Positions 1,794 through 13,544 are shown, counted from the stretch's first letter. The stretch: DNA of 32,000 nt from an uncultured bacterium (GCA_963704705.1 OY969931.1:1260001-1292000); one strand, 5' to 3'. Program-made: numbers and translations. The notes: generated from the sequence alone by a model not told the origin.

Positions 1794-3365
1794 CTAAATT
1801 TTATCAATAACCTGAGCAATTATATATGCTGCCTCACCTCTGCCGATTTCTTCTTCAGCAACAAAAGTCGAGCCGTTATATAATCCGTTGCTAACCGCCC
1901 AATCCATATAAGGCTTATACCACTCCTGGCCAGGCTTAACAGTTGGCAAACTAATTCCCGCGCTTTCCAAAGCCATTTTTATTGCTTCGACACGATTGAC
2001 TTTTTGATCCGGTTTAAATGTCCCGTCCGGATATCCCTGAACCATTTTATAAGCCACTCCGCTTAAAACATAAGGGAAATACCACTCGCCATCGTTCGTA
2101 TCTTTAAACGGATTAACAAAATCACTACCGCGCGTTTCAGCAAACCAGTATTTGGATGTATCGCGCGCAAAACTATTCAATGCCATTTTTAAAATTTCCG
2201 CTCTGTTAACTTTATCAACCGGCTTAAAAAGCAGACTATCGCCCTGACCTTTAACAATTCCAAGGTCAGCAAGATAAGTAATTGCATTATTAAAAATCGT
2301 ATTAATATCCACATCTTTAAAATATAAAACCGGCCCAAAATCTTTATCTTTTAATACATCCTTTATCACTCTCCAGTTCATTTTATCTTCTTTTCCGAGT
2401 CTCCAAATTGCAATTCCTCCCAAATCATATTTTTCAACAAGATCGAGTTTCGGCTTAATACTGACATGATTTTCAAACCAAACTTCATGCGGTATTTTTG
2501 GATCTCTCTCGTCAAATTCACTTATGTAAAAAAGTCTGTTTGTTTGTGTCGCGGGATCATACTGAAAATCCACACCATATTTGCTTAAAATAAGCTGGAT
2601 AGTGTCGTATGTATAGCTTGCAAAATAATCTCCGCTCCATCCATATCCATAAAAAGGAATGCCCAAATAAATTTTTTCTTTTGGTACATTATCAACCGCA
2701 TACTGAACAACTTCTTCCACCCAGTAATAAGGCGCTACAGGCCTTGGCACACTTCCGCTCCATCCATAATCATAAGTCATAATTCTGAACTCATCCACGT
2801 ATTGAGATAGAGCTTTCCAGTCCTGACCCCTGTCTCCAAACTTTAATAAAGTGGGATAAGATTTTGCCTGAATCGCAATCGTAAGTTTTTTATTATAATG
2901 ATTGAGTTCTTCGCGAAGATCCTTGATAAAAGCCGTAAAAGCCTCCTTGTCTTCGCTGTGGAGTCCTTCGTAATCTATATCGATCCCGTCATAATTAAAT
3001 TTTCGAACCAGGTCCACAATATTTTGAATACTAGATTTTTTTATTTCAGGATCATTAATAATTCCGCTTACCAAATCGCCGCTAAAAGAATTTGATATTG
3101 TTGGAATAATTGTTACACCATTATCTTTCGCAAATTTAATCAACTCCTGATTCTCACCATCCTTTGGTGGAGCCAAAGTGCCATCATTATTCAGATGATA
3201 CCAAAAAGGCGAAATTGTATTTATTGTATCCACATTATCTTTAAACGATTGAAATGCTTCATCGGTTTCCCACGATGGAAGCCATGCAGAAACATTGTAT
3301 TCTTTTGCCAAAGCAGTTGGAGCAATGAGCGCAAAAGCGCAAATAACAAGAAGTGTTTTTTTCAT
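1794..3365 (-). CDS. secreted glycoside hydrolase family 18 (chitinase/peptidoglycan hydrolase-like) with C-terminal SLH repeats
   Basis: Track ORF 1794..3617 trimmed to the internal ATG at 3365 (MKKTLLVICAFALIAPTALA, a signal peptide) because the extension overlaps the PBP gene. GH18 catalytic motif DGIDIDYE. Three C-terminal SLH-like repeats (FKDVDINTIFNNAITYLADLGIVKG.., FKDTNDGEWYFPYVLSGVAYKMVQGYPDGTFKPDQKVNRVEAI.., YKPYMDWAVSNGLYNG..). Confidence 0.85.
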   Translation of the reverse strand: MKKTLLVICAFALIAPTALAKEYNVSAWLPSWETDEAFQSFKDNVDTINTISPFWYHLNNDGTLAPPKDGENQELIKFAKDNGVTIIPTISNSFSGDLVSGIINDPEIKKSSIQNIVDLVRKFNYDGIDIDYEGLHSEDKEAFTAFIKDLREELNHYNKKLTIAIQAKSYPTLLKFGDRGQDWKALSQYVDEFRIMTYDYGWSGSVPRPVAPYYWVEEVVQYAVDNVPKEKIYLGIPFYGYGWSGDYFASYTYDTIQLILSKYGVDFQYDPATQTNRLFYISEFDERDPKIPHEVWFENHVSIKPKLDLVEKYDLGGIAIWRLGKEDKMNWRVIKDVLKDKDFGPVLYFKDVDINTIFNNAITYLADLGIVKGQGDSLLFKPVDKVNRAEILKMALNSFARDTSKYWFAETRGSDFVNPFKDTNDGEWYFPYVLSGVAYKMVQGYPDGTFKPDQKVNRVEAIKMALESAGISLPTVKPGQEWYKPYMDWAVSNGLYNGSTFVAEEEIGRGEAAYIIAQVIDKI

Positions 3366-3369
3366 ATAA

Positions 3370-5643
3370 TTACTTATCAGGTGGAATATTATAGTAATCA
3401 AAAAGGAAACTTGCAATATCACTAAAAATCGGCGCAGCGGTTTCAGATCCCCATTCACTCGCGCGCGGTCTGTCCAGTTTAACCAAAACAACAAATCTCG
3501 GGTTATCCACAGGCCCATAACCTGCAAAAGATGCGATTGTTGTACCTGCACCTTCCAGAGGTTCACCCCATTTATAAGTTTGGGATGTCCCTGTTTTTCC
3601 GGCAACATAATGGCCATCTACCTGACCTTTTTTAGCAACACCATTTTCAACTGAACTCACAAGCATTGCGGTAATTTTATTTGAAGTGTCTTCGCTGATC
3701 GCCTGCCCGATTACAGCTGGTTCAGTATATACGGTTTTCCCGCTACCATCAGTGATTGAATCTACAATATAGGGCTGCATAAGTGTTCCCTTATTGGCCA
3801 AAGCAGCATAAGCATTAACCATTTGCAAAGGTGTAACAGCAATACCCTGTCCAAATCCATGAGTGGCCAACTCAGAATCAGCCCATTGTGTAAAATATTC
3901 AACCTTTCCGGCTTCTTCTGTTTCAAATTCAATACCTGTTTTTTCTCCGAGTCCGAATTTCATCATATAACTGTAAAACAAATTTCTTCCGATTTTCTTG
4001 GCTACATAAGCCATTCCCACATTTGATGACTGTTCCAAAATGTTTGTCATTGTCTGAGTTCCCCTGTATTCGTTTGTTGAATTTCTGATTTCAAATTCAT
4101 CTACTTTAACCGGACCCGATTCGTAGAAAGTGCTGTTAGGAGTAACATCGCCATCATCAATTGCAGCAGCCATTGCAATAGGTTTAAATACTGAACCCGG
4201 TTCATAAATAGCAGCTACTATTTTATTTTGATAAACCTCCGGACCGAACCAATTTTCATATCTTTCATAAACAGGTTCTTTGCCTTCTTCAATATCCTTA
4301 AATACCTGAAATTTATCATCAGTATCATAATTTCTGTAAAAATTAAATTGAGTTTCGCTTTCATCAATTGGAACCAAACTATCCACTTCTTCCGGAGTAA
4401 ATTCCACATCAACCTTTTTAAATGCCTCAGAATAATTATTCGGATCAAACGTAGGATAATGTGCCATTGCAATAACTTTTGATGTTTTTGGATCAAGTAT
4501 CACAACCTGGCCGCTGTTTGCATTGTAGCGTTTAACTCCTGCGGCAAGTATTCTTTCGACTTCAAGCTCGATGGTTCTATCAATTGTTAACGTAATATTA
4601 TCACCATTAACAGCAGGCTCAATTACACTGTCGCCAACGGTAATCTGGCGGTTTTCAGCATCTTTTTGAGCTTTAAAAACACCATTTTTACCTCTCAGTA
4701 ATTTATCAAAACTTTCTTCAAGTCCATATTGTCCATTCCCCTCTGTATCAACAAATCCCAAAATATTAGCGGCTAAACTGCCTTCAGGATAAAATCTGGA
4801 ATACTCCTCTTTAAATCCTATACCCAAATAGTTGTGTTCACCGGGATGCTCGTCTTCATCTTTTTGAATTATCTCCCTTAGTTTTCGTGACCTTTCAGCT
4901 TCAACTTTTGTTGCGATAATTTCATATCTGTCTTCACCAATAAGTAATTGTTCAAGCCATGGAGCAGCAACGCCTAAATCTTCACTTAAAGCAATTGCCG
5001 TGTATCTTTTATCATAAATTCTTGCTGGATAGGCATATAAATTTCCTCCTCTGATTTCAATTCCATTTAGATTTTTTTTTGCAATGCCATCCAAGATATC
5101 TTGGGGTAAAGTATCATCAAGTAGAATTTCATCTCGTATTTCCATACTAACTTTCTTCAAAATAGTCTGATAAAATGAAGCTTTAAGTTCTTCATCTGAA
5201 AGCGGCTGAACACGATCATACGCTTCCATGTTACCTGTTCTTTTAAACTCACGTTTTTCTTCAATCATTCTTTGATTATCCTTTTCGCGTTCAGTATTCA
5301 AATCAAATAATGTTTCAGCCAATGCGCTGGCAACCATAGTTTTGTTAACGATTTGCTTCGGATCAACAAAAACAAGATCCAATGTTGTATTTGATGCAAC
5401 TGTGTAAGTTTCTCCATTTGTGTAGTCGTTAACTAAAATCTCTCCTCTTTTTGCAGGAAGTTCCGTATAACCCTGATGCGCTTTTGCCGCTGCATCATTA
5501 TAAAAATCATACCTTATAACCTGCAGATAAAATAACCTTATCATAATAATAAAACAGGAAACCCCAACTATTACCATTAAAAAAGTAATGGTATTAAATT
5601 GAAGTGTTCGCGCTGATTTTCTTCTATTGGTAGTGTAACTCAT
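3370..5643 (-). CDS. class B penicillin-binding protein (PBP2/FtsI-type transpeptidase)
   Basis: N-terminal membrane anchor (ITFLMVIVGVSCFIIMIRLFYL). Transpeptidase motifs SVFK (SxxK), SSN (SxN) and KTGT (KTG) occur in the canonical order. The stop lies 4 nt upstream of the GH18 start. Confidence 0.9.
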   Translation of the reverse strand: MSYTTNRRKSARTLQFNTITFLMVIVGVSCFIIMIRLFYLQVIRYDFYNDAAAKAHQGYTELPAKRGEILVNDYTNGETYTVASNTTLDLVFVDPKQIVNKTMVASALAETLFDLNTEREKDNQRMIEEKREFKRTGNMEAYDRVQPLSDEELKASFYQTILKKVSMEIRDEILLDDTLPQDILDGIAKKNLNGIEIRGGNLYAYPARIYDKRYTAIALSEDLGVAAPWLEQLLIGEDRYEIIATKVEAERSRKLREIIQKDEDEHPGEHNYLGIGFKEEYSRFYPEGSLAANILGFVDTEGNGQYGLEESFDKLLRGKNGVFKAQKDAENRQITVGDSVIEPAVNGDNITLTIDRTIELEVERILAAGVKRYNANSGQVVILDPKTSKVIAMAHYPTFDPNNYSEAFKKVDVEFTPEEVDSLVPIDESETQFNFYRNYDTDDKFQVFKDIEEGKEPVYERYENWFGPEVYQNKIVAAIYEPGSVFKPIAMAAAIDDGDVTPNSTFYESGPVKVDEFEIRNSTNEYRGTQTMTNILEQSSNVGMAYVAKKIGRNLFYSYMMKFGLGEKTGIEFETEEAGKVEYFTQWADSELATHGFGQGIAVTPLQMVNAYAALANKGTLMQPYIVDSITDGSGKTVYTEPAVIGQAISEDTSNKITAMLVSSVENGVAKKGQVDGHYVAGKTGTSQTYKWGEPLEGAGTTIASFAGYGPVDNPRFVVLVKLDRPRASEWGSETAAPIFSDIASFLFDYYNIPPDK

Positions 5644-5722
5644 GGACTCACATTGTAATAAAAAATATTAGTAAAGGAAAGAGATCAATGTTATCCTCAA
5701 ATAAGTAATTAATTCAAATACT

Positions 5723-6985
5723 ATGCATAAGAAAATCACCCTTCCAAATAATTTAAGAATTATCACTGAAAAACAAGAAAGCACAAAGGCGGTAACAATC
5801 CTTATTCTTGCCGGTGCAGGCTCGCGATACGAATCAAAAGATATTTGCGGGATCTCGCATTTTCTTGAACACATGTTTTTTAAAGGAGCAAAAAAATTTA
5901 AAAATACCAAAGAAGTAAGCGAAGCAATTGATTCTATAGGTGGAGATTTCAATGCGTTCACAGGCAAAGAATATGCTGGTTATTACGTTAAAGCCGCCAG
6001 CGACCAAATAGAAGTTGCTATGGATGTTCTTTCAGACATGCTTCTTCACGCACGTTTCGATCCAAAAGAAATCGATAAAGAACGCGGCGTGATTCTGGAA
6101 GAATACAATATGTATCAAGATACCCCTATGTATCAAATAGGATGGGATTTTGAAAAACTTGTATTTGGCGACCAGCCGCTGGGCCGCGACCAAATCGGCA
6201 CTCCGGAATTTATAAAATCCGTGACTCAGGAGCAGTTTCAAACTTATAAAAACAAACTCTACACGCCCGACAATATAGTATTAACATTGGCTGGTGATAT
6301 TGATTATGACAAAATGATGCCGCTTCTTGAAAAATATTTCGCATTCGAAAACGAAGCAAAATCATATAATTTTGACCCATACAAAAAGCCTGAGAATAGC
6401 CGTAAAATCTATCTTCATGAAAAATCCACAGAACAAGCGCATGTTGTTGTGGGCGGCCAATCCTACAAAGAAACTCACCCAATGCACTGGGCTGAAAAAC
6501 TTCTCGCAGTAATTCTCGGCGGAAACATGAGCTCACGAATGTTTCTGAATGTCCGCGAAGCAAAAGGCCTTTGTTATTACATAAGTACAAGCGCTGACAA
6601 TTTTATTGATACTGGAATTTTTTCAACCAGCGCAGGTGTTAATGTTGATGGAATTGATGATGCAGTCAAAGGAATCCTCGTTGAATACTCAAAAATCCGC
6701 GAAGATCGCGTTGATGAAAAAGAGCTGCAAAAAGCCAAAAACTTCATGAAAGGCAAAATGGTTCTTCGCCTCGAAGACTCAGAACAGCAAGCTCACATCC
6801 TCGGCAAATACGAACTTTTGCACGGCAGAATCATGACATTAAAAGAAATAATGGACGAGCTCGATAAAGTAACCATAGACCAAATCCAGCAGGTTGCCCA
6901 AGACATTCTTGCACCTTCGAATCTGCACATCGGAGTTATCGGCCCTTACGGAGATGCTTCGCGATTTGAGAAAATGCTTAATTAG
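5723..6985 (+). CDS. M16 family zinc metallopeptidase (pitrilysin-like)
   Basis: Inverted zincin motif HFLEH near the N-terminus. The ~420-aa two-lobed length is typical of M16B peptidases. Confidence 0.85.
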   Translation: MHKKITLPNNLRIITEKQESTKAVTILILAGAGSRYESKDICGISHFLEHMFFKGAKKFKNTKEVSEAIDSIGGDFNAFTGKEYAGYYVKAASDQIEVAMDVLSDMLLHARFDPKEIDKERGVILEEYNMYQDTPMYQIGWDFEKLVFGDQPLGRDQIGTPEFIKSVTQEQFQTYKNKLYTPDNIVLTLAGDIDYDKMMPLLEKYFAFENEAKSYNFDPYKKPENSRKIYLHEKSTEQAHVVVGGQSYKETHPMHWAEKLLAVILGGNMSSRMFLNVREAKGLCYYISTSADNFIDTGIFSTSAGVNVDGIDDAVKGILVEYSKIREDRVDEKELQKAKNFMKGKMVLRLEDSEQQAHILGKYELLHGRIMTLKEIMDELDKVTIDQIQQVAQDILAPSNLHIGVIGPYGDASRFEKMLN

Positions 6986-7406
6986 ACCACAAATACGGCC
7001 ATTTATAATATCTATCAACCAAACCTGCCTTAACAGGATTATTCAAGATATACTTTTTTACTCTAGCCAATTCAATCCCTACATTTACTTCTTTGTGACA
7101 AAATCTTCCCTCGAAAACATGACCTGTATGATTCCTTGTTCTATTAAAATATCTTGCATATGAATACTGTAAAACCTGACTGAATTTTGAAATATTTTTA
7201 GCAAAATGATCGCTTCTTAACAAGATATGAAAGTGATTTGGCATCACACAACCCACTTGAGTTTCAATCAAATACTTTTTTGCAAATTGACTTATTTTAA
7301 ACAAAAAAAAGCGATAATCCTGGTCGTCTCTGAATATTAACCTTTTAGAAACAGCTCGATTATAAATATGATAGTACGTATTTTTTCGCAAAGAAGGATA
7401 CCTCAT
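6978..7406 (-). CDS. IS200/IS605-type Y1 (HUH) transposase, REP-associated tyrosine transposase (RAYT)-like
   Basis: 142 aa. Contains YYHIYNRAV.., the HUH motif in PNHFHILL, and C-terminal YILNNPVKAGLV characteristic of the Y1_Tnp family. Its 3' end overlaps the convergent M16 gene by 8 nt. Confidence 0.75.
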   Translation of the reverse strand: MRYPSLRKNTYYHIYNRAVSKRLIFRDDQDYRFFLFKISQFAKKYLIETQVGCVMPNHFHILLRSDHFAKNISKFSQVLQYSYARYFNRTRNHTGHVFEGRFCHKEVNVGIELARVKKYILNNPVKAGLVDRYYKWPYLWSN

Positions 7407-7641: not shown

Positions 7642-8220
7642 ATGAACACAACCGACCTTTCCGAGAAGGTCCAGCAGGAAATAATTGAGGAGTTCAAGAA
7701 TAACCCCGACGCGTTCGAAAAAATTTACAATTTTTACTACGAGCGCATCCTCAAGTATTTACTTAAAAGGACCGCTTCAGCTGAGGCCGCATACGACCTC
7801 ACAGCTGACACCTTTATAAAAGCGTTCGAGTCATTTCATAAGTTTAAATGGACCGGCATTTCTGTAAAAGTCTGGCTTTACCGCATTGCAATAAATGCAT
7901 TGAAAAACCACAGAAGAAAGCCACAAAGCCAAGTTCTTACTGCTGAGATGGAAGGCATGGAAATCCTTGCGACAAATGCAAAAGAAGAACTCGAAGAATT
8001 AGACAAGGCAATGCACGGAGACGAAGACCTAAGCAAGCTGAGTGATGCAGTGGCAACTCTAAATCCAAAATATCAAAACATAGTTTCTCTGCATTATTTC
8101 GAAGGAATGTCACACAAAGAAATCGCGCACACAATACAAAGATCAGAAAGTGCAGTTAAATCAATGATGCACAGAGCACTTGAAAATTTACGTCAATTAT
8201 TAGCAACTAACACTATATAA
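7642..8220 (+). CDS. ECF-type sigma-70 family RNA polymerase sigma factor
   Basis: Region 2-like AAYDLTADTFIKAFESFHKFKWTGISVKVWLYRIAINALKNHRRK and region 4 HTH-like LNPKYQNIVSLHYFEGMSHKEIAHTIQRSESAVKSMMHRALENLR. 192 aa. Confidence 0.85.
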   Translation: MNTTDLSEKVQQEIIEEFKNNPDAFEKIYNFYYERILKYLLKRTASAEAAYDLTADTFIKAFESFHKFKWTGISVKVWLYRIAINALKNHRRKPQSQVLTAEMEGMEILATNAKEELEELDKAMHGDEDLSKLSDAVATLNPKYQNIVSLHYFEGMSHKEIAHTIQRSESAVKSMMHRALENLRQLLATNTI

Positions 8221-8222
8221 CA

Positions 8223-11200
8223 ATGGAAAATAACTATACAAACAGGAAGGTCGACCGTATTGAGGTCGATAAGTCCCAAAAATATCTCTGGAAGTATATC
8301 CAGGAAAAAAAGCATCTTGGCCTTAGCCAGCAAACAGCAAAAGCCAAAAAGGCGCATAATTCTTCTTGGTTCACGCCTAAAAAGTTTGCTTGGCTAGGAA
8401 CAATTGCGGCGCTCACAATTATTGCTGTTCTTGTCGTGCCAAATCTGCAAAATTTACTAAAAGGTGACATTACCGGCCAATCGATGATTGCAAATGCGCA
8501 TTTTACAATGACCGCAGACTCGCAGGATTCAGCCGGAATCGACAGCAAATCTTCTTTCACGCTCACCTCTGATGTTGATTTGGATGCTGCGTTGATTGAA
8601 GCGAATTTGGAATCGCTGCCAACCATTGATCTTAATGTTACTAAGATTGAAGCAGGAAAATATAAAGTGGAACCAGCGCAAAATCTTGAATCAAATACTA
8701 TATATAACTTCACGATCACAAGTGTTAATGAAGGCAAAACCGAAGAATTCAGCTGGGCTTATCAGGTTAAAGATGAATTTAAAATTTACGGATCAATGCC
8801 GGGTGACAAAACAACAAGCGTGCCTATTAATAGCGGAATCGAAATCGCATTCTCGCATGAAAATTACGACACAGAACAAGTAAAAAATTATTTTGAAATT
8901 TCACCTGCAACCGAAGGTTCATTTGAAAAACACAACAGAGTATTGGTTTTTGTTCCGACAAAAGGCTTAAATCCAAGCACAATTTACACTGTAACCGTTA
9001 AAGCAGGTTTACCTTTAAAAGATTCAGATAAAAAACTCGCTGAAGATTTCTCATTCAGTTTTGAAACTTCTAATGTAAGTTCAACAGGCGGTACAAACTT
9101 TTATTTTAATCAGGATTATTACGAGATCGGCACAAACATGCCGGTTGCAATGGGAGCTGCATGGTATGGCATGACTGATGAAGCAACTGACAACACTGTA
9201 AATGTTAAAATCCACAAATTTAAATCTGAAGAAGATTACATAAAAGTAGTTAAAGAGCGAAACGAAATTCCTTCATGGGCTCGCTATGCAAAAGAGAATT
9301 ACGCTTACAATCGTGATCAAATGAATTATATGGGTGAGTTCGACGGCACCATTGAAGAAATTGAATACAGCAAATTTATTTATGTCCCAACTGCCCAGCT
9401 TGAGCCTGGATTTTACCTGTTCACAGCCCAAAACAACGATAAAGTTTCAACCACACTGGTTCAGATCACTGATCTTTCAAGCTATATCAATCTTACAAAA
9501 GACGGCAATTTGGTTTGGGTAAATGATGTTTCAACAGGACAGCCTGTTAATAACGCAACTGTTGAATTATTGGATGAAAATAAATCAATCAAAACAAATG
9601 CAGATGGTATCGCTACATTTAATATGGATTTCTCAGATACTGGAAGCATTATTATAAAAGTCACTTCTCCTGACGGAAAAGTTCAGATTTCAAACTTATA
9701 TATTAATGAATACCAAAAAGAAGCAGCGAATTTAGCTGATTACTGGTATACATTTACAACTGACAGACCAGTTTACCAGCCCAGTGATACAATAGAATTC
9801 TGGGGCTTCTTAAAGCCTAAATCAGGCGACACGCAGGTTGGTGAAATTAAGGCTGAATTATATCAGGGTGGATATTTCTGGAACCTCGGAACTTATAGCG
9901 AAGAAGTTATCGCTGAAAAAGGCAATAACAATACTTTCCATGGAAATCTAGAAACTCAGGATCTGCCACCGGGTTATTACACACTAAGTATATATAATGA
10001 CGACGAGTTAATTTCGCAGGAATATATTGAAATTGTCAGTTATGCAAAACCTTCATATCAAATAGATGTGACAACTGATAAAAGAGCTATTTTCTACGAT
10101 GAAAAAATCAAAGTTGATATTATAAGCAGGTTCTTTGATGGTACGCCTGTGCCATTCCTTAAACTTTATTATAATGTTGCAGATCAGCTTACCACTGATG
10201 CAAACGGCAAATACAGTTTTGAATACACTCCTAAATCAGACTTTTATTGTTCTGATGACGGGCAATCTTGCGAAAATTTTCGCAATGAATATTTAACTTT
10301 TGATCCGGTTCCAAAAGAAGATTCCATGATTTCGGGTAAAGCCAATGTTAGGGTTTTCAAATCGCGTATTGCAATTAAAGCTAAGACTAAAACTGAGAAC
10401 AATATTGCGAATGTAAAAATCACAACTAATAAAGTTGATTTAACACCTTTAAATGAAGATGAAAACGCAGGCTACAACGATTACCTGGGAGAAGCAGCGC
10501 CAAATAGAGATATCAAAGGAAAACTAATTGAATTTTGGTGGGATAAAATCGAAACCGGTGAACATTATGATTTTATAAATAAAATTACAGTTAAAGAATA
10601 CAGATATGAAACCAGAGAAAATATTGTTGGCGAAATAAGTCTTTCTTCAGATGCAAACGGTGAAGCAGAATATAATTTTGAAATGCAGCCAAATAAACAT
10701 TACAGAGTAGTTCTAAATGCTGCTGATGATCAGGGTAAACTTTCTCATACAACCGCTTACGCTTATGGCAAAACAACAAACAATGATGAGTACAAAAGAA
10801 TAAAAATATTAAATTCAGAAGAAGAATACGGCCCTTATAAATTTGAGCTTGGCAAAGCAGTTGAAACCGCGATTGTTGCGCAGGACAGCGTTATCACACC
10901 TAAAGAGAATGAAAAATACTTATTCATGCAGCTAAATAACGGCTTAACCGAATATGCTGTTAAAGCCAGTCCTACTTACAACTTCACCTTCAAGCAGGCG
11001 CAGGTTCCTGGTGTTAGAGTTGAGGGCATAATTTTCACAGGTAAATATTATGAAACTGTGTGGGGTGATACTGTTATGTATGATCCAAAAGAAAAAACAA
11101 TTAATGTTGAGGTAAAAGCTAACAAAGATACTTTTGAACCCGGCGAAAAAGCCACTTTAACAGTTAAAACAACAGACCTAAACGGAAAACCTGTTTCAGC

Positions 11201-13544
11201 TGAAGTTCTGCTGGATCTTGTTGATGAAGCTTATTATGAACTCTTCTGGGATTCGCTTGAAAATCCATTGGACGAACTTTATAGATTTATTAATGACGGA
11301 GTTTATTCAACTTACAGCACGCATGAAAATCCAATGGTAAAAACAGAAGGAGGTTTAGGCGGATGCTTTAAAGAAGGAACAAAAATATTAATGGATGATA
11401 TGGGTTATAAAAATATTGAAGATATCGAAGTTGGTGATTTTATTACAACAAAGGAATCTGCCTTATCTGACCGTTTTGTTAAAGCAAAGGTTCTTAAATT
11501 GCAAAAGCACACTGTTAGCGCGTATCTTGTAATTAATGAGGATTTGGAAGTTACACCTGAACATGTTGTGTTTGTTAACGGTCATTTTGACCTGGCAGGC
11601 AAAGTTAAAGTTGGCGACACTATGCTGGATAAAGACGGTAATTCAATTGAGGTATGGGGTGTGCGCAAAGTTTATGAGCCAACTAAAGTTTATAATTTTG
11701 AAGTTGAACACTACCACACTTACTTTGCAAATAATTACTATGTTCATAATGACAAAGGCGGTGCGCGAAGCGAATTTAAAGACACTGCTTTATTCAAATC
11801 TGTAACTACAAACGGCAGTGGTGATGCGCAAATTACTTTCGAACTTCCTGATAACATTACCAGCTGGCGTGTTACAGCGCTTGCAATTGATTCGGATCAA
11901 ATACGTGCGGGTCGTGGCGGCGGCAACATAATTGTAACTAAACCGTTCTTTGCAGACCTTGTAATGAACAAAGAATATTCAATAAAGGACGAACCTAATA
12001 TTGGCTTAAGAGCATACGGAAAAGAAATAACAAAAGACGACAATGTTACCTTTACTGTTGGAGACGATGTAATTAACGGCAAAGCTTATACAGCTGTTGA
12101 TTACAAGCTTCCTAAACTTGAACTTGGCGAACATGAACTTAGACTTGATGCAAAATCAGGCAACTACGAAGATGCGCTAATTGAAAAATATGAAGTTGTC
12201 GGCTCTCGCCTAAAACAGACTAATGTTGAAATTTTACCTACCGTAACCGAAGAAACAGACTTCCCAATGCCGAGTGAAGGCTATGCGAAAGTTTACTTCT
12301 TAAATGCCGGACTTGCAGGCCACTACGGACAATTACTTTCACTTTATTATACAAATGGCGAACGACTTGACCAAAAATTATCAGAACAAATTGGCAAAGA
12401 TTTAATTAATGAATATTTTGATTTGGGATTTGTTGATAGAACGGTTTTTGATCCGGCAGATTATCAAAATTTTGATGGCGGATTAAAACTACTTCAATAT
12501 GCTGACCCTGATTTGAAATTAACAGCCTTGGCAACTGCTGTTGATCCAAAAGATAACAGGTTTTCAAAAGCGAGTCTTAAATCATATTTCTATCAAAAAT
12601 ATATGGATAAAGACGCAAATCTCGAAGAAGTTGTTCTTTCATTACTTGGATTGGCCAGTATTGATGAGCCTGTTCTTCAAAGTCTTCAAATCATAAAAGA
12701 TGAACCAAAATTAAGCCTGGAAGATAAAATTTATATTGGTCTTGCATTTGCCGAACTTGGAAGCAAAAACGATGCATCACAAATTTATAATGAAGTTAAA
12801 GGTTCGTTTATGAATGATAACCCTGACCAGACCGCTCTTGGAACAGTGCTTGCTGCTGCGGTTGGAGAAAAAGACGATGCATTCAAATACTGGGAATATG
12901 TGGGACGAAAACAGTTAAAAGATGATATTCCAAACATTTATTTAATGGGATATTTAAAATATTCATTAAAAACAGCTGACCCTGACAGTGTTAAGTTTAC
13001 GGCACGAATCGGCGATACTGAAAAAGAAGTCGAGCTTGATAAATGTGAAACTTTCAACACTCTTGCAAGCAGCTTTAAAGGTTTAAGTGTTGCAAATGTT
13101 GATGGCGATTTGGCTGCGGTTGTTGTGTACGACGAAGCAATTGAACCAAGTGAATTTAAAAGATCCGATATAATAAATATTAGCAGGTCATACAAAGTTA
13201 ATGGCGTAGAAACAACCGATTTTACCGAAGGTGATTTGGTTGAGGTAAACCTTGCAATAAATTATTCAGGTGAAGGCGACGCTTACTTCCAAATTACAGA
13301 TGTGCTGCCTAGCGGACTTAAAATATTAAGCAGTTCAGGTGCACCATTTGGAACAAATGGCCAGGAAGTTTTCTATGGCTGGTCTACCAAAACTCCGCGA
13401 AACATAAGTTATTATGCAACTGTTGTTAATAGCGGTAAGTTCTATGCTGACCCAGCGCGAATATCAAAATATGATGACTGGGAAATCGCAAATATATCTG
13501 AACCTGTATTTATAACAATTTCGAGTTATAATGAGGCCCCATAA
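8223..13544 (+). CDS. membrane-anchored alpha-2-macroglobulin-like giant surface protein (thioester motif absent) with inserted Hint domain
   Basis: The ATG lies 2 nt after the sigma stop. A ~55-aa N-terminal cytoplasmic segment precedes one TM helix (FAWLGTIAALTIIAVLVVP). Ig-like repeats follow, then an MG-domain signature TDRPVYQPSDTIEFWGFLKP. The A2M-family signature is RSEFKDTALFKSVTTNGSGDAQITFELPDNITSWRVTALA, and the C-terminus carries ITDVLPSGLKILS. The protein has only 4 Cys and none sits in a CxEQ context. Confidence 0.75.
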   Translation: MENNYTNRKVDRIEVDKSQKYLWKYIQEKKHLGLSQQTAKAKKAHNSSWFTPKKFAWLGTIAALTIIAVLVVPNLQNLLKGDITGQSMIANAHFTMTADSQDSAGIDSKSSFTLTSDVDLDAALIEANLESLPTIDLNVTKIEAGKYKVEPAQNLESNTIYNFTITSVNEGKTEEFSWAYQVKDEFKIYGSMPGDKTTSVPINSGIEIAFSHENYDTEQVKNYFEISPATEGSFEKHNRVLVFVPTKGLNPSTIYTVTVKAGLPLKDSDKKLAEDFSFSFETSNVSSTGGTNFYFNQDYYEIGTNMPVAMGAAWYGMTDEATDNTVNVKIHKFKSEEDYIKVVKERNEIPSWARYAKENYAYNRDQMNYMGEFDGTIEEIEYSKFIYVPTAQLEPGFYLFTAQNNDKVSTTLVQITDLSSYINLTKDGNLVWVNDVSTGQPVNNATVELLDENKSIKTNADGIATFNMDFSDTGSIIIKVTSPDGKVQISNLYINEYQKEAANLADYWYTFTTDRPVYQPSDTIEFWGFLKPKSGDTQVGEIKAELYQGGYFWNLGTYSEEVIAEKGNNNTFHGNLETQDLPPGYYTLSIYNDDELISQEYIEIVSYAKPSYQIDVTTDKRAIFYDEKIKVDIISRFFDGTPVPFLKLYYNVADQLTTDANGKYSFEYTPKSDFYCSDDGQSCENFRNEYLTFDPVPKEDSMISGKANVRVFKSRIAIKAKTKTENNIANVKITTNKVDLTPLNEDENAGYNDYLGEAAPNRDIKGKLIEFWWDKIETGEHYDFINKITVKEYRYETRENIVGEISLSSDANGEAEYNFEMQPNKHYRVVLNAADDQGKLSHTTAYAYGKTTNNDEYKRIKILNSEEEYGPYKFELGKAVETAIVAQDSVITPKENEKYLFMQLNNGLTEYAVKASPTYNFTFKQAQVPGVRVEGIIFTGKYYETVWGDTVMYDPKEKTINVEVKANKDTFEPGEKATLTVKTTDLNGKPVSAEVLLDLVDEAYYELFWDSLENPLDELYRFINDGVYSTYSTHENPMVKTEGGLGGCFKEGTKILMDDMGYKNIEDIEVGDFITTKESALSDRFVKAKVLKLQKHTVSAYLVINEDLEVTPEHVVFVNGHFDLAGKVKVGDTMLDKDGNSIEVWGVRKVYEPTKVYNFEVEHYHTYFANNYYVHNDKGGARSEFKDTALFKSVTTNGSGDAQITFELPDNITSWRVTALAIDSDQIRAGRGGGNIIVTKPFFADLVMNKEYSIKDEPNIGLRAYGKEITKDDNVTFTVGDDVINGKAYTAVDYKLPKLELGEHELRLDAKSGNYEDALIEKYEVVGSRLKQTNVEILPTVTEETDFPMPSEGYAKVYFLNAGLAGHYGQLLSLYYTNGERLDQKLSEQIGKDLINEYFDLGFVDRTVFDPADYQNFDGGLKLLQYADPDLKLTALATAVDPKDNRFSKASLKSYFYQKYMDKDANLEEVVLSLLGLASIDEPVLQSLQIIKDEPKLSLEDKIYIGLAFAELGSKNDASQIYNEVKGSFMNDNPDQTALGTVLAAAVGEKDDAFKYWEYVGRKQLKDDIPNIYLMGYLKYSLKTADPDSVKFTARIGDTEKEVELDKCETFNTLASSFKGLSVANVDGDLAAVVVYDEAIEPSEFKRSDIINISRSYKVNGVETTDFTEGDLVEVNLAINYSGEGDAYFQITDVLPSGLKILSSSGAPFGTNGQEVFYGWSTKTPRNISYYATVVNSGKFYADPARISKYDDWEIANISEPVFITISSYNEAP
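11364..11750 (+). other. Hint (mini-intein / bacterial intein-like) domain embedded in the A2M-like ORF, residues 1048-1176
   Basis: Starts with Cys (TGC 11364-11366) in CFKEGTKILMDDMGY (block A-like). Contains LEVTPEHVVF (TxxH, block B-like) and VYNFEVEHYHTYFANNYYVHN (block F/G-like, ending His-Asn at 11745-11750). At 129 aa there is no room for a homing endonuclease. The +1 residue is Asp, and the flanks are Gly-rich (EGGLGG / DKGG). Confidence 0.8.

Follow-up and report, generated by a model that had tools for sequence, protein, structure and literature searches.

Type-A bacterial intein-like (BIL) domains end in His-Asn and process themselves through an N-terminal thioester and a C-terminal cleavage by asparagine cyclisation; because they have no +1 nucleophile their splicing proceeds by aminolysis, and cleavage products dominate (PMC4031507). 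In alpha-2-macroglobulin (A2M), discontinuity of the bait region and retraction of its C-terminal end from a channel bring about the conformational change, and extra residues added to the bait at synthesis shift the protein towards the collapsed form, except where they are looped out (PMC9352918). Here we describe a gene in which the two are combined. It lies in a stretch of 32,000 nucleotides (nt) from an uncultured bacterium (GCA_963704705.1 OY969931.1:1260001-1292000), hereafter the window, and its open reading frame (ORF; 8223..13544, + strand) encodes a 1773-residue A2M-like membrane protein, recognised from the ORF list, its translation, Pfam (Big_5, A2M_BRD, PT-HINT and A2M) and Foldseek. 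A type-A BIL-like Hint domain is inserted in this protein at the loop that alignment equates with the A2M bait region, the usual target of proteases, and with the junction between the anaphylatoxin (ANA) domain and alpha'NT in complement C3. The architecture suggests a protease trap or sensor that is able to trigger itself. By analogy with described BILs, our preferred reading, to which we assign a probability of roughly 0.55, is that the Hint domain would break the bait loop independently of any attacking protease and that, in those family members coupled to a sigma factor, self-processing would prime or fire a signal.

The Hint module occupies 11364..11750 (+), which corresponds to amino acids (aa) 1048-1176, and comprises 129 residues with no endonuclease; it is defined by Pfam, by sequence matches in the PDB and by AlphaFold and Foldseek. 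Its translation, CFKEGTKILMDDMGY ... LEVTPEHVVF ... VYNFEVEHYHTYFANNYYVHN, lies in frame within the ORF, preceded by EGGLGG and followed on the C-terminal side by DKGGARSEFKDTALF...PDNITSWRV. Pfam PT-HINT matches the whole protein at 47.7 bits (E 2.4e-12, cut-off 27.7) and the module alone at 54.6 bits, and Hom_end_hint matches the module alone at 34.8 bits (cut-off 32.1). The best sequence match in the PDB is the Clostridium thermocellum BIL 2LWY (E 8.5e-9, 32% identity, with the common block VYNF..HTY..VHN), and a family profile placed BIL2 (6TMM/6Y75; E 8.8e-18) and 2LWY (E 2.4e-17) above all inteins. An AlphaFold model of the module with 10-residue flanks, with a predicted local distance difference test score (pLDDT) of 90.7, superposes on BIL2 6Y75 with a template modelling (TM) score of 0.80 and on 2LWY with scores of 0.78/0.84 and a root-mean-square deviation of 1.9 Å, the next structural matches being canonical mini-inteins and Hedgehog; the domain is folded with high confidence both in this model and in that of aa 601-1773. 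The Hint match is real, and not a chance resemblance.

The catalytic residues are all in place. Residue counts below refer to 166 A2M-type proteins with a complete Hint domain, except for those of TxxH, block F and the downstream motif, which come from a 60-sequence family alignment. Cys1048 (11364..11366, +), residue 1 of the Hint domain and the predicted nucleophile of the N-S acyl shift, is invariant (166/166), as is the terminal His1175-Asn1176 pair of block G (11745..11750, +; 166/166), the predicted site of asparagine cyclisation. The block B TxxH sequence is Thr1111-Pro-Glu-His1114 (Hint Thr64 and His67; 11553..11564, +), with Thr and His each conserved in 60/60, and the block F Asn of VYN, as found in 2LWY, is present in 59/60. 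The residue at +1 is Asp1177. The module therefore has the curated profile match, fold, block A nucleophile and block B TxxH of the Hint superfamily, and it shows every sequence and fold feature of a type-A BIL: an N-terminal Cys, a C-terminal His-Asn, no +1 nucleophile, and BIL structures as its nearest solved relatives by both sequence and fold. It shares the terminal His-Asn with canonical class 1 inteins and lacks their +1 Cys, Ser or Thr. The initial annotation, which had called a BIL-type Hint domain here without endonuclease or +1 nucleophile and with the Cys, TxxH and His-Asn blocks, is thus borne out, its translation included.

The host is a thioester-less, A2M-fold, N-in single-pass membrane protein of a Patescibacteria (Candidate Phyla Radiation, CPR) bacterium. 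Foldseek comparison of an AlphaFold model of aa 601-1773 (pLDDT 87.3) returned ECAM 5A42 as the best match at E 3e-45, with matches to ECAM and Salmonella A2M ranging from 3e-45 to 5e-44, and further matches to complement C3/C4/C5, CD109, TEP1 and human A2M. Searching solved structures with the family profile likewise retrieved ECAM (E 1e-29). A family profile was needed for this match, since single-sequence phmmer of the whole protein against the PDB gave Hint matches only and none to A2M. NCBIfam has no family for the 1773-aa protein, and Pfam places a Big_5 match near its N-terminus. The layout that emerges from Pfam, profile, Foldseek and DSSP analyses is that of the A2M superfamily, namely a ring of macroglobulin (MG) domains, a bait-region domain, an A2M domain, a thioester-domain (TED) equivalent and a C-terminal MG domain. 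On the N-terminal side of the Hint module, an A2M_BRD match (aa 886-1007; 10878..11243, +; 28.5 bits, cut-off 22.7) covers the MG5/MG6-beta/LNK side of the bait and is aligned by the family profile to C5 526-629 and to ECAM. Beyond the module come the Pfam A2M match (aa 1188-1248; 11784..11966, +; 34.3 bits, cut-off 21), which includes the PDNITSWRV signature, and a helical TED-like domain without a thioester motif (aa 1365-1583; 12315..12971, +; DSSP helices at model residues 765-983), the start of whose first helix is occupied by GHYGQ. The chain closes with an MG-like beta domain (aa ~1590-1767; 12990..13523, +; DSSP strands at model residues 990-1167), which has a profile match of 43.8 bits to the C-terminal region of ECAM and a weak match to bMG10. 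The same model (window 10023-13541) fits trypsin-activated ECAM 4ZIQ with a TM score of 0.55 versus 0.27-0.28 for native ECAM and Salmonella A2M; the better fit could mean that the family has been modelled in an 'activated-like' state or could be an artefact of the omitted N-terminal MG domains.

Both ends of the Hint domain are set in disordered linkers. The N-terminal, Gly-rich linker (aa 1035-1047, ...MVKTEGGLGG; 11325..11363, +; pLDDT <50 at model residues 435-447) brings a conserved Gly-Gly pair up to Cys1, with Gly at -1 in 162/166 and at -2 in 152/166. On the other side, family counts and pLDDT define a linker Asp1177-Lys1178-Gly-Gly-Ala (11751..11765, +), without a +1 nucleophile and with a conserved Lys at +2, and pLDDT is <50 at aa 1178-1185 (model residues 578-585). 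Five residues after the Hint domain begins RSEFKDTALF (11766..11795, +), which profile alignment identifies as the alpha'NT/MG6a-like motif located after the bait of A2M-family proteins. When the junction profile was built with the Hint domain deleted, this motif aligned with human A2M 729-814 (ETVRKYFPETWIW...) and also with CD109. The human bait region comprises residues 690-728, between LNK and MG6a (PMC8267569), and the alignment of the downstream motif directly after it places the Hint domain at the bait-equivalent position. In ECAM, too, the bait segment (disordered at R923-L942; PMC4498604) falls between the stretches that align with the two sides of the domain. The motif itself is highly conserved (R 60/60, F 58/60, D 60/60), and R..F.D starts 3-11 residues after His-Asn in all 166 homologues. 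By these alignments the insertion site corresponds topologically to that of the anaphylatoxin domain in C3, C4 and C5. The bait position, the Gly-rich EGGLGG/DKGG flanks and the A2M signature after the module had all been proposed beforehand, together with a profile search for Hint and A2M families; PT-HINT, A2M_BRD and A2M each scored above cut-off, and the proposals stand. As a separate observation, the bait loop of the family (for example window 11340-11363, homologues P0060-P0085 and loci L037-L085) is short, unlike the long and hypervariable bait of classical A2Ms, and has a recurrent G-A-E-x-G-G motif; AE.G precedes the junction in 58% of Hint-bearing and 58% of Hint-less members, and the loop may be a specific processing site.

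A whole-protein search returned 60 Hint-bearing proteins of about 1750-1930 aa (29-74% identity, the named ones from Patescibacteria) and 37 Hint-less homologues of about 1600-1740 aa. In place of the Hint domain, the latter carry a short Gly-rich loop at precisely the junction, as in GGAEGGG-EGGSERKDF or GAEGGG-EGGSER, and so provide the orthologues with an intact Gly-rich junction and no insert that the initial annotation had envisaged. When aa 990-1250 were searched exhaustively, 350 representatives of 50%-identity clusters matched at E<=1e-30, and about 140 of the best 150 representatives match flank, Hint domain and flank in one stretch; a word-index search with the Hint domain alone was uninformative, with just 3 short proteins retrieved. 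Hundreds of 50%-identity clusters contain the architecture, those with a label all belonging to Patescibacteria, and with hundreds of machine-annotated database proteins it is not rare. In a set of 80 species-representative genomes or loci, Hint-bearing genes occur in CPR lineages (Peregrinibacteria, Peribacteria, Parcubacteria, Collierbacteria, Saccharibacteria and others, a few bins being doubtfully labelled) and Hint-less genes in Firmicutes, Dehalococcoidia and some CPR.

Mean pairwise identity is higher for the Hint domain (49%) than for the host (36%), and the two co-vary (r 0.80). Taken with the invariance of Cys1, TxxH and His-Asn, this higher conservation points to purifying selection, and self-processing is predicted from the invariant catalytic residues. 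The GC content of the domain, overall and at third codon positions (GC3), matches that of the host gene, with no compositional anomaly; a recent horizontal insertion was rejected on this ground and on that of the co-varying identities. Conservation, co-variation and GC evidence together indicate an old, vertically inherited and catalytically intact insertion. In a rough neighbour-joining tree of Hint-masked sequences the Hint-bearing proteins fall mostly together, with a few long-branch Hint-less lineages nested among them, and a single gain of the domain is plausible. An apparently degenerate Hint domain in locus L023 was dismissed as an artefact of masked bases. Given this pattern, it is most improbable that the Hint fold survives only as an inert module, serving as a structural spacer or for binding: Hint folds without activity do occur in other proteins, but here Cys1, TxxH and His-Asn are invariant in 60-166 sequences, down to about 29% host identity.

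The same evidence bears on a resident splicing element, that is, an old insertion passed on vertically which removes itself and re-ligates its flanks by type-A BIL aminolysis, with no regulatory role. Such an element would leave a mature protein equal to the Hint-less homologues, in which the loop is intact at a precise insertion point, and the junction after excision, GG-DKGG, resembles their GG-EGG. Both Hint termini are invariant, as splicing requires, the domain diverges together with its host and is compositionally unremarkable, and type-A BILs can splice (PMC4031507). Nevertheless, the +1 position tells against it: the counts among the 166 proteins are D91 E29 Q23 A9 N6 S5 T2 I1, with Cys in none and Ser or Thr in 7, a distribution that argues against canonical splicing, and selection for efficient splicing would have favoured these very residues. 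Cleavage dominates in the type-A BILs that have been tested, and the BIL of M. magnetotacticum spliced only after its Tyr+1 had been changed to Cys (PMC4031507). The domain has persisted in hundreds of clusters even though it has no homing endonuclease. Inteins typically sit at conserved active-site positions, unlike this flexible and weakly constrained loop. We consider a resident splicing element possible but doubtful.

The residues just after the domain raise another alternative. Lys occurs within +1 to +3 in 165/166 proteins, and by analogy with Tetrahymena BIL2 this near-universal Lys may be a nucleophile. The Hint domain could then be a relocated warhead, with a Gly-Gly-Cys thioester resolved by a lysine epsilon-amine either in cis (the +2/+3 Lys) or in trans (on a bound protease or host-cell protein). 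BIL2, which ranks first among the structural matches of the module and second among its sequence matches, sets a precedent in that it joins the C-terminus of its N-extein to Lys through an isopeptide bond and conjugates other substrates as well (PMC8616854); the Gly-Gly before Cys1 fits, and the family lacks the CxEQ thioester motif. This motif is absent from P0001-P0097 and present in the distant A2Ms P0098-P0111 of the same search; among the species-representative loci a CxEQ string anywhere in the protein occurs in L059 alone. Since the Hint-less sisters also lack CxEQ there is no complementary pattern, and the idea that the Hint domain replaces the lost motif specifically in Hint-bearing proteins was rejected. 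The Lys may instead serve solubility or catalysis, and the similarity to BIL2 amounts to only 23-24% identity. A warhead of this kind therefore seems unlikely; if it were real, a thioester-less A2M would regain covalent capture, or ubiquitin-like isopeptide ligation, through intein chemistry, and in sigma-coupled members the warhead would report the capture event across the membrane. Two observations touch on the same position. Hint-less loops have no fixed Lys at the place of the near-universal post-Hint Lys (window 11751-11765). The closest non-A2M relatives of the Hint domain are proteins with 3-5 Hint domains (P0226, P0170, P0138, P0141, P0233), which also have K directly after His-Asn; this counts in favour of the warhead, and in P0226 and P0170 adjacent domains are separated only by KG, KGG or GKGGGG (...VHN-KGG-CF...).

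That PT-HINT is the best Pfam match invites a further comparison, with polymorphic toxins, where the HINT domain lies just upstream of a released C-terminal domain and is proposed to act in autoproteolytic processing (PMC3482391). Applied here, the C-terminal 597 aa would be cut off the membrane-anchored N-terminal half as a diffusible effector. The downstream part is nevertheless an ordinary A2M C-terminal half (A2M domain, beta domains, TED-like helices and C-terminal MG domain) with no toxin domain, and the neighbouring genes show no immunity-like pattern, so that the toxin and immunity-gene architecture of PT-HINT (PF07591) hosts is absent. The membrane anchor of the N-terminal half would suit release, yet the fold would not. 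In the A2M superfamily, strands from before and after the bait together make up MG6. The two chains would on that account probably stay together, which makes separation of the 597 aa doubtful and such a release very unlikely.

A connection to transcription is suggested by the gene immediately upstream, which encodes an extracytoplasmic function (ECF)-type sigma-70 factor (7642..8220, +; Pfam Sigma70_r2, r4_2 and Sigma70_ECF), is co-oriented and stops 2 nt before the A2M-like gene starts. The A2M-like protein begins with a segment of 54 residues (8223..8384, +), a putative sigma-binding (anti-sigma) part with a conserved motif, NRKVD..KSK.YLWKYIQ, that is common to P0001-P0040. There follows a single predicted transmembrane helix (aa 55-73, FAWLGTIAALTIIAVLVVP; 8385..8441, +; from a hydrophobicity scan and the sequence), and the Lys-rich residues N-terminal to it indicate an N-in topology with the ectodomain outside. 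The gene thus combines an adjoining, co-oriented ECF sigma gene with a single-pass, N-in protein and a cytoplasmic N-terminal segment, as ECF anti-sigma factors do. An ECF sigma gene also lies directly upstream of the homologues in L001, L002 and many other species-representative loci, and across the 80 loci an N-terminal extension before the first transmembrane helix tracks with it (22/28 versus 1/46, Fisher p 2e-12). The upstream sigma gene is found in about 16/34 Hint-bearing and 7/45 Hint-less members, and the coupling is a property of part of the family rather than of the Hint domain. These associations suggest a class of candidate anti-sigma factors with an A2M-fold sensor domain; a literature search for A2M-like domains with anti-sigma factors found no description of one. 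Sigma-coupled A2M-like loci comprise, besides the window itself (7642-8220 and 8223-8441), L001, L002, L006-L008, L012, L018, L019, L022, L025, L028, L030, L032, L035, L036, L051, L052, L057, L077, L083 and L085, and the coupled members have a cytoplasmic extension of 45-110 aa before their single transmembrane helix.

Our preferred reading, a bait loop that is broken from within, can be set out as follows. After export and folding, the Hint domain would perform type-A BIL chemistry: an N-S acyl shift at Gly1047-Cys1048 would generate a thioester, and cyclisation of Asn1176 would cut the Asn1176-Asp1177 bond. As there is no Cys, Ser or Thr at +1, no branched intermediate would form and the thioester would be resolved mainly by hydrolysis. 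The main product would be a two-chain protein plus free Hint domain, with aminolysis by the alpha-amine of Asp1177 (giving a peptide splice) or by the conserved Lys1178 (giving an isopeptide) as a minor route. The C-terminal cut would expose a fresh N-terminus immediately before the alpha'NT-like plug, in analogy to the loss of the anaphylatoxin from C3, and it is by virtue of this chemistry that the loop would be broken without an attacking protease. In sigma-coupled members (this gene and about half of its Hint-bearing relatives), autoproteolysis would prime or fire a signal as in RsgI and FecR, which are precedents for autoproteolytic anti-sigma factors (PMC10328401); the upstream ECF sigma gene and the anti-sigma-like topology make it probable that self-processing is part of such transmembrane signalling.

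Several points weigh against this proposal. If type-A BIL splicing were efficient it would restore continuity and there would be no trigger, and invariant catalytic residues would be expected of a neutral splicing element too, because a host protein that failed to splice would be crippled. The domain is evidently dispensable for the Hint-less relatives, which have the same loop. Sigma coupling occurs in Hint-bearing and Hint-less members alike and so is not Hint-specific, and a Pfam scan of seven N-terminal cytoplasmic segments gave no match to an anti-sigma family, so that the anti-sigma role is argued from topology and context.

Other features of the neighbourhood are recorded here as observations. 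The M16 peptidase and sigma genes are separated here by an IS200/Y1-type transposase ORF (window 6978-7406, -), which overlaps the M16 ORF at its end. Nothing separates these two genes in the syntenic locus L001, which suggests that the transposase ORF was inserted recently. The sigma/A2M pair is preceded by a divergent gene for a transpeptidase like penicillin-binding protein 2 (PBP2) and by the M16 peptidase gene (window 3370-6985; L001 734-4329), an arrangement not seen in L002 or L003. The A2M-like protein of L001 is 44% identical to that of the window. The proximity of a PBP2-like gene to an A2M gene recalls the yfhM-pbpC pairing of E. coli. About 1.7 kb downstream, and conserved in L001, a second ECF sigma gene overlaps a gene for a 244-aa protein without a Pfam match (window 15216-16560; L001 12789-14080), which is probably the anti-sigma factor of the second ECF sigma. 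A Memo-family gene directly follows the A2M-like gene in L002 (10635-11543) and L004 (8839-9732), of which one is Hint-bearing and the other Hint-less, and is not found at this position in the window. Genes for surface proteins with S-layer homology (SLH) domains lie nearby (GH18+SLH and SLH+CAP; window 1794-3617, -, and 17557-18681, -) and flank L001 as well, consistent with an S-layer-bearing, monoderm-type CPR cell envelope.

The initial annotation knew of no description of this architecture, and literature searches for Hint, intein or BIL domains with macroglobulins, or in CPR bacteria, likewise found nothing relevant and no paper on it; the survey of polymorphic toxins makes no mention of macroglobulins (PMC3482391), and automated annotations do list the domain combination. 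What is new is thus an undescribed, widespread and evidently selected combination, whereas its chemistry and fold are known. A2M, complement and thioester-containing proteins (TEPs) are all fired by a cut in one loop, and a self-cutting domain within that loop would amount to a built-in experiment on the trigger mechanism, the plug-in-channel model. BIL/Hint chemistry would gain a host context that is new, fixed and evidently under selection, and a large, conserved surface protein of the Patescibacteria, a group whose cell-surface biology is mostly obscure, would acquire a candidate function. The association with ECF sigma factors points to a new kind of extracytoplasmic sensor, in which an A2M-fold anti-sigma factor would cleave itself by intein-type chemistry. 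Finally, the Hint domain with its short Gly-rich exteins is small and easily expressed, and could be a useful tool for protein engineering.

Set beside known systems, the module shares with the type-A BIL 2LWY the N-terminal Cys, TxxH, terminal His-Asn, missing +1 nucleophile, lack of an endonuclease and residence in an exported protein. Described BILs are hosted by variable regions of secreted or adhesin-like proteins; here, in contrast, the domain always occupies the same functionally critical loop of an A2M-fold protein, and a large clade has inherited it vertically. The BUBL BIL2 of Tetrahymena thermophila, in which the N-extein ends in Gly-Gly and a C-extein Lys is the nucleophile that yields an isopeptide (PMC8616854), resembles it in the Gly-Gly before Cys1 and the conserved Lys at +2/+3, Lys attack being putative in the A2M Hints; BIL2 differs in being eukaryotic, in its ubiquitin-like flanking domains and in sharing only ~24% identity. 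Class 1 mini-inteins (gp41-1, Ssp DnaB, Mtu RecA) agree with the module in fold and in blocks A, B, F and G, but here +1 is Asp (and never Cys among the 166), block F has Asn where many inteins have Asp, and insertion is into a flexible loop of a surface protein that is not essential. RsgI and FecR/FoxR are single-pass, anti-sigma-like proteins that cleave themselves outside the cytoplasm before regulated intramembrane proteolysis (PMC10328401), albeit at an Asn-Pro site or by an N-O acyl shift at Gly-Thr, without a Hint domain and with sensor domains that are not A2M-like; the anti-sigma function proposed here is drawn from context. ECAM/YfhM and Salmonella A2M share with the host protein its fold, domain order, membrane anchoring and the placing of the bait loop inside an MG domain, and differ from it in having CxEQ, a lipoprotein anchor instead of an N-terminal transmembrane helix, no adjacent ECF sigma gene, and a long variable bait instead of a short conserved Gly-rich loop plus Hint domain. 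In complement, cuts on each side of ANA by furin and convertases give a two-chain molecule and a conformational change. C3, C4 and C5 offer a parallel in layout, a globular domain at the same topological site before alpha'NT (RSEF... in both); ANA and Hint are unrelated folds, and where ANA is cut out by furin and convertases, the Hint domain would cut itself out.

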